Shown here: one piece after another, positions 5,050-11,634 of the stretch
Numbering within the stretch: the first letter of the stretch is position 1
How the letters are laid out: every line of letters begins with the position of its first letter
Source of the DNA: Escherichia phage vB_EcoM_MM02
Reading direction: 5' to 3' (one strand)
Sequence record: MK373784.1
DNA: 64,000 bases
Translations under genes and position numbers: made by a program
Notes under the pieces: model-generated
What the model was told of the DNA's origin: nothing
What the model saw: the letters and a program-made list of their open reading frames with translations, nothing else
The model's database searches: none

Positions 5050-6006
5050 TTATTTGAAAGGTTTTACCATATGGAAATTTTGTTTGAAACGTTTGACGTA
5101 ATCGTCGTGTCCTAAGCTTTGGTACATACTTACTACTTTGCTATAATTTTCCCAAGCGAACTCACGGAACCATCCTGATGTGATTGATGTACAGACCTTT
5201 TCAAGGGCCATCATAAAACTATCACGTGGATGGATTTTAAAGTCGTTAGGAATCTGTGAACGTTCAAGAGCTAATACACAAGCTTCTTCATATACACCGG
5301 CTAATTTAACCATTTCTGGGAATGATTCGAACTTCTCGCGCGATGTCATAACTTCTGAGCCTTCTTTCATATAAAACTTATAAGCAGGCTGGTCAGTTAG
5401 TGCAATGGCTTCATGGATAGTATCATGGTCATACGTATAGATGTCATCTTTAAAGAACGCACTTTTAGAAGTGTCAAGAACTGGGTGAGCATAATTCAAG
5501 GTTTCTTTCTGGCGTTTCAGCATAATTTCAGTAAGTTCATCGTTCAGTGTAACACCTTTACCACGAAGATACTGAATATGGTTCATAGTCTTTAAAAAGA
5601 ATGGATTATTTTTCTTGAAACGATGAGACATCTTAATTGCAAGACATATCTCAGGAGTTGCCCAGTAAAACCCGTTCAAACGGTCTTTAGTCAAATTTTT
5701 CTTGGCGTATTTTAAAAGGTCATAAGAAGACGTGAAATCTTCAGGAGTGAGTTCACCGACTAGTTCGCGAACGTTAGTGATAGCCGGAACGATGTATGCT
5801 TCAAAATGAGTTTCGCGTCCATTATGGAAGCATTTGAAAACTTGGACATCAGGGTTATCTTGGTGAACATATACACCCATCATTTGATTTTTGAATGCAT
5901 TCCAAGAACCTTGGTCCGCAATAAAGTCCCAATCACTATTTTTAATAGCGCTAGAATCAATAAGACCGTGATAGTGAAGTGCACGAGAACCAATAACTAA
6001 CATCAT
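5050..6006 (-). CDS. hypothetical protein, possible pol-beta-type nucleotidyltransferase fold
   Basis: 318 aa; N-terminal IGSRALHYHG...(17 aa)...DWDF resembles the GS...DxD nucleotidyltransferase signature; weak. Confidence 0.45.
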   Translation of the reverse strand: MMLVIGSRALHYHGLIDSSAIKNSDWDFIADQGSWNAFKNQMMGVYVHQDNPDVQVFKCFHNGRETHFEAYIVPAITNVRELVGELTPEDFTSSYDLLKYAKKNLTKDRLNGFYWATPEICLAIKMSHRFKKNNPFFLKTMNHIQYLRGKGVTLNDELTEIMLKRQKETLNYAHPVLDTSKSAFFKDDIYTYDHDTIHEAIALTDQPAYKFYMKEGSEVMTSREKFESFPEMVKLAGVYEEACVLALERSQIPNDFKIHPRDSFMMALEKVCTSITSGWFREFAWENYSKVVSMYQSLGHDDYVKRFKQNFHMVKPFK

Positions 6007-6034: not shown

Positions 6035-6286
6035 TTAAATTTCACGACATGCGATATTATATTCATCCCAGAGGTCATCATGTGAAGCCTCTACCAATGG
6101 AACGATTGTACCGTTTATGTCTTCATTATAAGGGCAAATTGTACAGTGCGCATCTTCGAATCGGATGCCTTTGTGTTCAGATTTTTTATAACGCATATCG
6201 AATATCTTTGCAAACTTTTCACGAGTAATGGTTTTACCAACCACTTTGGTTCCTATACTTTCGTAATAAATCATTGTGGACTCCAT
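6035..6286 (-). CDS. hypothetical protein
   Basis: 83 aa ORF; HCTICPYNED Cys/His pair; C-terminus ...NIACREI. Confidence 0.4.
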   Translation of the reverse strand: MESTMIYYESIGTKVVGKTITREKFAKIFDMRYKKSEHKGIRFEDAHCTICPYNEDINGTIVPLVEASHDDLWDEYNIACREI

Positions 6287-6302
6287 TTGTTTTGATAGGA
6301 CT

Positions 6303-6332
6303 ACTATAACATAGCCCTATCTTGTTGTAAAC
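6303..6332 (-). promoter_or_regulatory. early-type promoter GTTTAC-N18-TGtTATAGT
   Basis: Minus strand GTTTACAACAAGATAGGGCTATGTTATAGT; imperfect palindrome ATAGGACTA-N8-TAGCCCTAT overlaps the -10. Confidence 0.45.
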
Positions 6333-6336
6333 TGTT

Positions 6337-6534
6337 TTAGCAAGAATAACTAGATGATACCCAGCCTTGAACAGTGATACTATTGTGGGATAATGAGATC
6401 GCGTCCTGGAGATTCAGACCTGCGTTATCTTCAATCCATAATGTAACTTCTTCGCGTTCTTCTGTTGCAATTTGGAACAGGTTTTCCAGAGCAGCTACTG
6501 CCGTACGTACAGCACAATCTAATTCACGAGACAT
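6337..6534 (-). CDS. small protein, GWVxSSxxC C-terminal family
   Basis: 65 aa; C-terminus ...QGWVSSSYSC-stop. Confidence 0.45.
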   Translation of the reverse strand: MSRELDCAVRTAVAALENLFQIATEEREEVTLWIEDNAGLNLQDAISLSHNSITVQGWVSSSYSC

Positions 6535-6543
6535 ATTGTTTCC

Positions 6544-6816
6544 TTAGCAAGTGTGAGAAGATGCGACCCAACCACCGGTTTCGAGGCTCAGGTTGTAGTC
6601 GTATTGGTAAACGTCAGCCCATTCAGCATAGCCGTTTTTTGTACAACGTTCAAGATCGGCTTTAAGATGTCCGGGTGAATGATAGGTTCCACCCATACCA
6701 TAAGCTGGGTACAAGTTGAACGTTGTGTTTTGTTTATCAGCAATTTCTTTGGCAGCCTCAATAGCTGCATAGATTTTTGCTACAGCTTCAGCCAGTTCGG
6801 TTTGTTCTTTAGACAT
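6544..6816 (-). CDS. small protein, GWVxSSxxC C-terminal family
   Basis: 90 aa; N-terminal helix similar to next gene; C-terminus ...GGWVASSHTC-stop. Confidence 0.5.
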   Translation of the reverse strand: MSKEQTELAEAVAKIYAAIEAAKEIADKQNTTFNLYPAYGMGGTYHSPGHLKADLERCTKNGYAEWADVYQYDYNLSLETGGWVASSHTC

Positions 6817-6825
6817 AATGATTCC

Positions 6826-7131
6826 TTAGCACAACGCAGAAGACGAAACCCAAGCACCTTCAGTAATAACGTAACCATTACCTTCACGCTTAACATCGCC
6901 ACCATTATTTTCAATTTCATCTTTCATCCACTGGGATACGATTTCACCCTTAGGATAATAAGTACGACCGCTACCATAATCACCTACAGAAAATGATACG
7001 GCATATTGGTCTGCGATCTTTGTTGCTTCTTCTTCGATACGTTCAGCTTGATTCAGAAGTTTATAAATTGCATCTGAAGCGGATTTGGCATCATTAAACT
7101 CTGGTACTTTAATTTCAATAATCTTACTCAT
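6826..7131 (-). CDS. small protein, GWVxSSxxC C-terminal family
   Basis: 101 aa; C-terminus ...GAWVSSSALC-stop; stop overlaps SD of next gene. Confidence 0.5.
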   Translation of the reverse strand: MSKIIEIKVPEFNDAKSASDAIYKLLNQAERIEEEATKIADQYAVSFSVGDYGSGRTYYPKGEIVSQWMKDEIENNGGDVKREGNGYVITEGAWVSSSALC

Positions 7132-7487
7132 TTTCTACATTCCTTAATAAAGTTTTCGATTGTTTCATTTTCACGTCTAGCTAGGAGTTCATTATAACTA
7201 ATCATTTGAGAAGCGTAAACCTTTTTATTTTTCTTGTTGTGGTTTATAAAATCGTAGTAAAAATAGACTATAGTACAAAATGATGCGATGGATGCAAAGG
7301 CTTGGGTATACCGTAAGTCCTGCCATTGGTCTGTGAATCCACCAGTGTTCCCTATAAATCCTAACACAACGCCGTCAATAAGAAATCCAACTAATCCAAA
7401 GGCAAATCCCATGCCAATACTCATAATAAAAATTAGAATGTTCTCACCAAGAGAAGGCCATACGGTTAAGAGTTGAGGCTTTTGCAT
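7128..7487 (-). CDS. membrane protein, C-terminal FIKECR motif
   Basis: 119 aa; hydrophobic segments; C-terminal ...ENFIKECRK. Confidence 0.5.
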   Translation of the reverse strand: MQKPQLLTVWPSLGENILIFIMSIGMGFAFGLVGFLIDGVVLGFIGNTGGFTDQWQDLRYTQAFASIASFCTIVYFYYDFINHNKKNKKVYASQMISYNELLARRENETIENFIKECRK

Positions 7488-7891
7488 CTTATTTCCTTAA
7501 CGAATTCCATAGCTTCTTCATATTCATACTTTTTAACAGCTTCATCATACTGAGCTTGGGCTTTTGCGCACTGAACTCTCCATTCTCTTAATCGGGCTCT
7601 GTGATGACGGCCTTGGTGCCAATATCCTACCCAATTAATAGGCATTAATAAAAACGGTACAATAAGTGGTGCGACGAACATTAATGAAAATGCTGCATCA
7701 GACGATATAACTTCACTAGAATCTAAAACAGCTCCTATAATCATAAAGATTAAAAATGCTAAAGCTAAAATAGGGCCAAATAGTACTTCATTTGGGATTA
7801 ATTTACGCTTGTATTCATACGCCCAGGGCTTACTTGGCATGTATAGGGTTGGCTTTGACATATTCTCTACATTCCATAATAAATTGCTCAA
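7466..7891 (-). CDS. membrane protein
   Basis: 141 aa ORF (start uncertain, overlaps upstream gene); two hydrophobic segments; C-terminal ...EFVKEIRCKSLNS. Confidence 0.45.
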   Translation of the reverse strand: MSNLLWNVENMSKPTLYMPSKPWAYEYKRKLIPNEVLFGPILALAFLIFMIIGAVLDSSEVISSDAAFSLMFVAPLIVPFLLMPINWVGYWHQGRHHRARLREWRVQCAKAQAQYDEAVKKYEYEEAMEFVKEIRCKSLNS

Positions 7892-11479: not shown

Positions 11480-11556
<77 letters not shown>

Positions 11557-11559
11557 GAT

Positions 11560-11634
11560 TGGTGACCCTGGCTGGTTTCGATCCAGCTACCTATCAGTTA
11601 TGAGCTGACAGCTCTCCCATTGAGCTACAGGGCC
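11560..11634 (-). tRNA. tRNA with CAT anticodon (Met or Ile-lysidine type)
   Basis: Hand-folded 75-nt cloverleaf: acceptor GGCCCTG/CAGGGTC, anticodon loop CTCATAA, T-arm GCTGG-ATCGAAA-CCAGC, encoded CCA. Confidence 0.65.

Follow-up and report, generated by a model that had tools for sequence, protein, structure and literature searches.

Three small genes and a downstream nucleotidyltransferase gene

The DNA analyzed here, in the following called the window, is a stretch of 64,000 nucleotides from Escherichia phage vB_EcoM_MM02 (sequence record MK373784.1), an RB69-like T4-type phage (Mosigvirus). Its minus strand carries three neighboring small genes, the products of which share a C-terminal tail ending in cysteine, and, downstream of them, a gene for a predicted nucleotidyltransferase (NTase) of the polymerase-beta (pol-beta) type, with which the three genes probably form an enzyme-plus-partner module. 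The features concerned are the following, with E denoting the expectation value and HMM a hidden Markov model of the family described below:

6826..7131, minus strand: paralogue A, 101 amino acids, C-terminus EGAWVSSSALC, YGSGRTYYP loop; phrog_899 at E 1.3e-22, family HMM at E 4e-24
6829..6852, minus strand: tail motif of A, WVSSSALC
6544..6816, minus strand: paralogue B, 90 amino acids, C-terminus TGGWVASSHTC, YGMGGTYH loop; phrog_899 at E 5e-19, family HMM at E 1.3e-25
6547..6570, minus strand: tail motif of B, WVASSHTC
6337..6534, minus strand: paralogue C, 65 amino acids, C-terminus VQGWVSSSYSC, without Gly-rich loop; phrog_4882 at E 7.7e-37, family HMM at E 1.5e-5
6340..6363, minus strand: tail motif of C, WVSSSYSC
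5050..6006, minus strand: partner NTase gene, 318 amino acids, DUF7277 (N-terminal) and DUF7275 (C-terminal); predicted MenT/AbiEii/ANT-like pol-beta NTase

A first-pass annotation of the window had described three consecutive minus-strand genes, each with Cys as the final residue of its product, and both the open reading frames (ORFs) and their ends were confirmed. All three lie in one common reading frame and are separated by spacers of 9 nt (TAA-GGAATCATT-ATG and TAA-GGAAACAAT-ATG), in which a Shine-Dalgarno-like AAGGA incorporates the preceding stop codon, and the start codon of paralogue A and the stop codon of the e.3-like gene upstream overlap (ATGA). When the whole window was translated in six frames, the pattern W[VILM]xS[ST]xxC followed by a stop was found three times, each time at the end of a trio protein, with 0.01 occurrences being expected from composition and the same value being obtained with 200 shuffles. 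The codons of the tails differ synonymously between the copies (Val is encoded by GTT, GTC, or GTA, Ser by TCG or TCA and by TCT or AGT), as had been noticed before, and selection therefore acts on the tail peptide. The same differences rule out a DNA-level repeat as the cause of the shared tail.

The proposed paralogy of the three proteins was borne out as well. Pairwise BLASTP similarities are modest (E 2e-4, 3e-4, and 1e-3), the aligned portions being the C-terminal halves, and one family profile matches all three. The N-terminal helix that A and B had been said to share stood in part: a long helix with K/E-I-A-D-Q/K at its end is predicted for both proteins, whereas the similarity before this ending is weak. 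The isoelectric points (pI) of the trio proteins are 4.6, 5.0, and 4.2.

A family with an invariant tail

Relatives of the trio were collected with an HMM built from 11 sequences, which was searched exhaustively (E<=1e-3) and yielded a family of at least 532 representative clusters at 50% identity; word-indexed searches found few of these relatives. Nearly all matches have a length of 70–130 amino acids, and the end of the profile is also the end of the protein. The first-pass annotation had stated that the family would probably be incidental if the terminal motif were not conserved in related phages; the orthologues clearly show it to be conserved. Among 168 retrieved proteins, 154 end in W-x-[S/A/P]-S-S-x-x-C (W-x6-C), and 8 further ones contain one additional residue past the Cys. 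In the 154 tail-matching proteins, W(-7), S(-4), and C(0) never vary (100%), S(-3) is conserved in 97%, position -5 is occupied by Ser, Ala, or Pro, and Gly predominates at positions -8 and -9. The tail Cys is the sole Cys in 96 of 162 family proteins.

In most family members a loop in the middle of the protein, YG(M/S)G(G/R)TYYP, also precedes a variable acidic linker, and the family as a whole is strongly acidic (median pI 4.5, median charge -8). The bodies of the paralogues range from 52 to about 159 amino acids and occur with or without the YGxGxTYY loop. No conserved stretch of 7–10 residues is present in the full family alignment, and what all paralogues have in common is the tail only. 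In Phapecoctavirus tuntematon, a 72-amino-acid paralogue (locus L079, 2413-2631) has two tails, an internal WQSSSC and a terminal WHSSSC, both of which lack the two-residue spacer before the Cys. This doubled tail suggests that the tail is a portable unit whose spacing is not absolutely fixed.

The earlier view of the trio as a local triplet had to be given up, since the trio is one case of a 1–4-copy array that recurs across many phage lineages. Dhakavirus-like loci of related T4-type phages (L088-L110, e.g., L088 1875-2882) contain four paralogues of 96, 93, 65, and about 70 amino acids in fixed order, with ends GAW..., GGW..., TSW..., and GFWF..., the window trio corresponding to the first three. 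As the same order is kept in these loci, the paralogues are old and order-conserved and do not go back to a recent triplication.

That no function has been described for this family, as stated in the first-pass annotation, agrees with all searches performed. No Pfam or NCBIfam model covers it, and the trio proteins yielded no significant match to Pfam, NCBIfam, or PDB sequences; weak Pfam matches to the XkdF protease, E217 gp32, and the MscS C-terminal domain are below the cut-offs. PHROGs divides the family into phrog_899 (matching A and B) and phrog_4882 (matching C), neither of which has a function or a record of the common tail or of the linkage to the NTase. Literature searches for the RB69 ORF names, for DUF7275/DUF7277, and for a phage MenT-like NTase module found no relevant publication in the library searched. 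The small-protein family is undescribed. T4 Tk.1 (L270 347-535; 62 amino acids) was considered as a further member at a family-HMM E of 0.0016 and was rejected, as it has no tail. Its weak match covers the helix and YGDAETYY and comes either from chance or from a very remote relationship to the family without the tail.

The AlphaFold model of paralogue A has a mean predicted local distance difference test (pLDDT) score of 90.3 and begins with a long predicted helix. For the family, structure comparison and the PDB sequences revealed neither a recognizable fold nor a solved relative. Precursors of secreted signaling peptides (arbitrium/ComX/AgrD-like) were rejected as an explanation, since the proteins have no signal peptide, the modeled domain is confidently folded, and they are acidic proteins of a cytoplasmic type.

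The predicted partner enzyme

The NTase gene, which had been overlooked in the first-pass annotation, lies 331 nt downstream of paralogue C and is co-directional with the trio. Homologues are numerous (2,115 in the protein collection), with matches in 733 phage records, including common phages of E. coli, Klebsiella, Acinetobacter, Pseudomonas, and Aeromonas. Fifty diverse homologues have G6-S7, D25-x-D27, K125, H128, H194-D195, H198, E240-E241, and E248-R249 in common and also conserve the block KVCTSITSGWFRE. The GS...DxD signature is indicative of a pol-beta NTase, and the catalytic signature is intact. The predicted fold combines a pol-beta NTase domain, which has the G[GS]...DxD signature for metal binding, with a C-terminal helical domain bearing a conserved Lys. 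In line with this, the best structural match obtained with Foldseek was MenT1 (probability 1.0, target-normalized TM score 0.50). Pfam searches at E<=5 assigned only DUF7275 and DUF7277; no match to PF08843 (AbiEii/DUF1814) was obtained for the NTase or for any of the 50 homologues, and none to RlaP, the RNA-ligase-associated pol-beta NTase (PF10127), for the NTase. A homologue in Klebsiella phage vB_KpnM-VAC36 is labeled ‘prohead assembly scaffold protein’, which is probably a misannotation.

Linkage of the tail genes to the NTase gene

The linkage was examined from both sides. For a tail-anchored sample, IMG/VR was scanned with a degenerate DNA pattern for YGMGGTY, which yielded 73 loci, 43 of them with family genes; after removal of same-contig duplicates and addition of the window, 42 loci were analyzed by clustering the same-strand genes within 5 kb. 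An enzyme-anchored sample consisted of 80 IMG/VR loci chosen by the NTase alone. Since the locus samples are redundant, de-replicated counts refer to NTase clusters at 70% identity.

Tail-anchored loci usually contain 2–3 tandem paralogues, and 31 of the 42 have a homologue of the ORF at 5050-6006 on the same strand within 5 kb; in the remaining 11 the sequence breaks off downstream of the small genes within less than 1 kb. The runner-up neighbor family occurs in 9 loci, all of which are close relatives. Conversely, 1–4 same-strand tail genes are present within 4 kb in 72 of the 80 enzyme-anchored loci (one, two, three, and four copies in 24, 22, 12, and 14 loci), and 2 additional loci have a gene with a shortened tail, W-D-x-S-S/T-C. 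After de-replication, tail genes accompany 25 of 26 NTase clusters. All 159 tail genes of the enzyme-anchored sample are located upstream of the NTase gene and none downstream (159/159).

The pairing is also present outside the T4-like phages, namely in Phapecoctavirus tuntematon (three paralogues), Otagovirus phiPsa300 (two), and Acinetobacter Lazarusvirus (one), and Menderavirus Ps15 pairs the NTase with a single tail gene located downstream. Its occurrence in Phapecoctavirus, Otagovirus, Menderavirus, and Lazarusvirus rules out inherited T4-type synteny as the sole cause of the linkage. In T4 itself an unrelated gene, e.2, occupies the slot of the trio, and neither the family nor the partner NTase was found in the 66 kb of T4 scanned. 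As a partial test of bacterial and archaeal genomes, 185,579 of them were searched with the exact-YGMGGTY pattern, and there was no family member or NTase among the 103 chance matches. The Cys-tailed family is apparently restricted to phages.

Distant DUF7275-type NTase genes without Cys-tailed neighbors are present in Streptomyces phage Wakanda, Gordonia phage Cucurbita, Vibrio phage VH7D, and roseophage DSS3_VP1. These four genes adjoin another family of small proteins of about 95–155 amino acids (L084 4594-4893; L085 4600-4890 and 4887-5357; L086 3360-3656; L083 5217-5612) with a motif of roughly G-x-Y-x-S-Y/W-x-G...E-V-x-P-x-x-K-x-I-T-x-Y, which may be an alternative partner family of the NTase. 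Five NTase residues (R129, R165, Y172, H174, and C272) are invariant in enzymes accompanied by tail genes and replaced in three of the distant homologues without tail genes (Wakanda, Cucurbita, and VH7D). This pattern is a weak hint at a contact between tail and enzyme and is confounded by phylogeny.

Genes for RNA repair (Rnl1, Rnl2, polynucleotide kinase-phosphatase, and phosphoesterase) and for tRNAs are repeatedly located within a few kb of the module, as at the following positions:

L003, 689-3478
L083, 1265-2810
L084, 45-917 and 8494-8573
L085, 5847-8287
window, 11480-11634

Genomic surroundings in the window

Over 4 kb the window is 99.5% identical to Escherichia phage vB_EcoM_G53, and its nearest annotated relatives belong to Mosigvirus. 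In related annotated genomes the trio corresponds to RB69ORF136c-139c, between the e/e.1 genes (lysozyme and Nudix) and the homologues of e.3-e.6, and a tRNA cluster follows a few kb past this region. Three further features were recorded close to the trio:

7191..7219, minus strand: sigma-70-like promoter match, TTTACG-17-TATAAT, closely upstream of A and within the e.3-like gene; a match to the consensus only
6294..6321, minus strand: hairpin after paralogue C, GATAGGGCTA...TAGTCCTATC
6035-6286, minus strand: 83-amino-acid ORF between trio and NTase gene, phrog_3723, three Cys including HCTICP; promoter-like site at 6331-6303

In a related phage a T4 middle promoter is annotated at the position equivalent to the promoter match. 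In phage SA79RD the hairpin carries the annotation of a rho-independent terminator; in the window the terminator scan made no call for it, and no T-run follows it on the minus strand. A homologue of the 83-amino-acid ORF is found in close relatives only (4 loci), and this ORF is therefore not a conserved part of the module.

The homologue of e.4 (7466-7891, minus strand) bears the label ‘sulfurtransferase’ in the records of JK36, JK42, JK45, and F31. It was rejected as a clue to cysteine chemistry, since it is a predicted membrane protein without Pfam support for this label, which is likewise probably a misannotation that has been propagated. The whole window contains only two tRNA genes (Arg-tct and Met-cat; 11480-11634, minus strand). 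The close relative JK36 has at least seven tRNA genes in the equivalent cluster, which thus appears to be reduced in the window phage.

Small proteins as possible clients of the NTase

Concerning the way in which enzyme and partners might work together, we tentatively favor the reading that the small proteins are clients of the NTase and that their tail is the site of recognition and probably also of modification. The NTase would recognize the tail common to every paralogue and then act on it chemically, with the transfer of a nucleotide (or phosphate) onto an invariant tail serine being the likeliest reaction. The terminal Cys and the carboxylate may help the tail to dock at the metal/nucleoside triphosphate (NTP) site, and the differing bodies of the paralogues would take the modification to different tasks. 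Physical interaction, the tail as contact site, covalent modification, and a downstream role are thus what we infer; the tail is likely to be the element seen by the enzyme because it is the sole feature shared by all paralogues. The client reading is favored because the invariant residues are Ser, Ser, and Cys and not a binding helix, because several tandem paralogues are located upstream of one enzyme, and because pol-beta NTases are known to attach nucleotides to protein hydroxyl groups (GlnD/PII, GlnE, MntA/HepT). Clusters of substrates and their modifier are usually laid out in this way, with tandem paralogues of a small gene preceding the gene for the enzyme. The suggestion of the first-pass annotation that the tail might be a shared modification or recognition tag finds indirect support in the occurrence of the tail in every paralogue and in the almost constant position of the tail genes closely upstream of one conserved NTase gene.

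Several known systems resemble parts of this arrangement. As an analogy only, a pol-beta NTase is genetically paired with a small protein bearing an invariant hydroxyl group in GlnD-PII uridylylation and in AMPylation by the type VII toxin-antitoxin system MntA-HepT. The targets in these systems are modified on Tyr in internal loops, whereas the candidate residues of the trio are the Ser-Ser pair near the C-terminal Cys, the trio has no PII or HEPN homology, and its modification is hypothetical. An invariant extreme C-terminus in small proteins is also a trait of ThiS/MoaD/CysO (Gly-Gly end), LysW (EDWGE end), and aminovinylcysteine (AviCys) precursors among the ribosomally synthesized and post-translationally modified peptides (RiPPs), where this end is the site of the chemistry. 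Like the trio, such carrier proteins and RiPP precursors are often encoded by several tandem paralogues, which in their case lie upstream of the modifying enzyme. The AviCys motif of epidermin-type lanthipeptides is S-x-x-Cys-COOH, and the Ser at -3 and the terminal Cys of the trio tail fit this motif. Unlike ThiS/MoaD, the trio proteins have neither a beta-grasp fold nor a Gly-Gly end, and, unlike leader-core peptides of RiPPs, they are folded domains of 65–100 amino acids with a pol-beta NTase as neighbor. Among the eight genes surrounding the trio, searches against Pfam and PHROGs detected no E1-like, ATP-grasp, LanB/LanM/LanKC/L, or LanD/HFCD genes, and across the loci the NTase gene is the only neighbor that is conserved.

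A more far-reaching version, which we consider improbable, is that nucleotidylylation of a tail Ser drives a chemistry of the terminal Cys, either by beta-elimination to dehydroalanine and addition of the Cys (a lanthionine/AviCys-like C-terminal ring by an AMPylation-type route) or by formation of a protein-primed nucleotide chain. If true, this Ser/Cys chemistry would define a new class of enzymatically tailored phage proteins, which would be used for control of host translation or against tRNA-targeting or AbiE-type immunity.

A number of observations weigh against the client reading. Among solved structures, the nearest relatives of the enzyme are MenT1, 3, and 4, whose substrates are tRNA 3′ ends and not proteins, and their small partner MenA1 exerts its control non-covalently (PMC10435456, PMC11375011). 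In the model of paralogue A the tail (residues 91-100, mean pLDDT 88) forms a strand and a short helix packed on the fold, and since the modeled tail is no free peptide, the W and the two Ser could be partly structural. The geometry of the tail is not absolutely fixed, as SS and C are closer together in a few members (WHSSSC, WDGSSC). One NTase clade (L127, L128, L131, and L153) has no tail gene within 4 kb. It is represented by viral contigs of about 55–141 kb, and its NTase retains C243 and C272; the partner genes of this clade may be located elsewhere in the genome or may have been lost. Finally, in the window phage a promoter-like site and a hairpin separate the trio from the NTase gene, and trio and NTase may therefore not be strictly co-transcribed.

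Alternative explanations

The main alternative, possible though less likely, is that the small proteins are non-covalent regulators in the manner of MenA1, which bind the NTase and hold it inactive or alter its specificity, with the tail serving for docking and not as a substrate. MenA1 is a 68-amino-acid antitoxin encoded immediately upstream of MenT1, the active sites of which it blocks while inducing auto-phosphorylation at a G-S/T residue (PMC10435456, PMC11375011). The MenT toxins extend tRNA 3′ ends with nucleotides and thereby block translation (PMC10435456, PMC11375011). As judged from the genes, the phage module resembles MenA-MenT by its layout and the predicted fold of its enzyme. 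In MenA1-MenT1 (Rv0078B-Rv0078A of M. tuberculosis; also in AbiEi-AbiEii/DUF1814), as in the trio, a small protein is encoded upstream of and co-directionally with a MenT-fold pol-beta NTase, and the partner begins with a long helix. MenT1 is moreover the best structural match of the NTase, and MenA1, which is small and encoded directly upstream of menT1, works via its long helix (PMC10435456, PMC11375011). The trio proteins are likewise small and upstream, they are acidic (pI 4.2–5.0; family median 4.5), and their long predicted N-terminal helix and acidic surface would fill the RNA-binding cleft. The NTase also keeps the invariant G6-S7 at the position of the MenT phospho-acceptor, a correspondence read from the motif and not from a superposition.

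Other features differ from MenA-MenT. The trio proteins have no detectable sequence or fold similarity to MenA1 (Rv0078B, PDB 8AN5), and the window NTase lacks the Pfam match of DUF1814/AbiEii and has a larger, highly conserved helical domain (DUF7275). In place of one partner there are 1–4 divergent paralogues per enzyme in conserved order, which would be superfluous for a simple inhibitor. Unlike MenA proteins as described (PMC10435456, PMC11375011), the family has an invariant W-x-S-S-x-x-Cys C-terminus, and the residues conserved in all paralogues are the nucleophiles of this tail and not those of the helix. Unlike toxin-antitoxin pairs such as MenA-MenT, the module occurs in virulent phages, and the partial pattern test did not detect it in bacterial chromosomes.

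That the small proteins act independently of the NTase and that the linkage reflects shared timing or a shared pathway only appears unlikely. They could then be acidic host-takeover or anti-defense proteins, nucleic-acid mimics, or binders of small molecules or metals by way of the Gly-rich loop and the Ser-Ser-Cys tail. Proteins that are strongly acidic, small, phage-only, and encoded in an accessory early-gene region would suit such a role, as would the multi-copy, fast-diverging arrays, which are reminiscent of many anti-defense genes, and the separate promoter-like site and hairpin flanking the trio. On the other hand, the linkage is near-obligate and keeps its direction in phage groups that are not related to one another, for which an explanation other than a functional tie is hard to find. 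Paralogue C lacks the Gly-rich loop, so that a ligand pocket built from this loop cannot be general, and no fold match of the small proteins to known sponges or DNA mimics was found.

Very improbable is a purely structural tail of otherwise ordinary small phage proteins, with the Trp in the core, Ser-Ser capping a helix, and the Cys kept for the fold: in the AlphaFold model residues 93-100 form regular secondary structure at good confidence, and the conserved Gly and Trp suit tight turns and a small hydrophobic core, but no structural role in the cytoplasm is apparent for an invariant last or next-to-last Cys, which is the only one in 96 of 162 proteins, bodies of quite different length and motifs retain the same tail, and this tail co-occurs with one specific enzyme.

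Implications

The RNA-repair and tRNA neighbors together with the relationship to MenT point to tRNA or translation biology. Conjecturally, the module might serve host shut-off, the repair of tRNA ends, or the countering of tRNA-targeting or AbiE-type defense. AbiE has been described as the fourth most abundant phage-defense system (PMC11375011).

Both halves of the module are without a name, a function in Pfam, or a publication, and the lack of the module at the equivalent slot of T4 may explain why it has never been studied. For experiments, the invariant Ser-Ser-x-x-Cys end provides a sharp and cheap handle. Being a phage relative of MenT/AbiEii with obligate small partners, the NTase could be part of a host-shutoff device, of a tRNA-repair or counter-defense device, or of a new protein-modification system.

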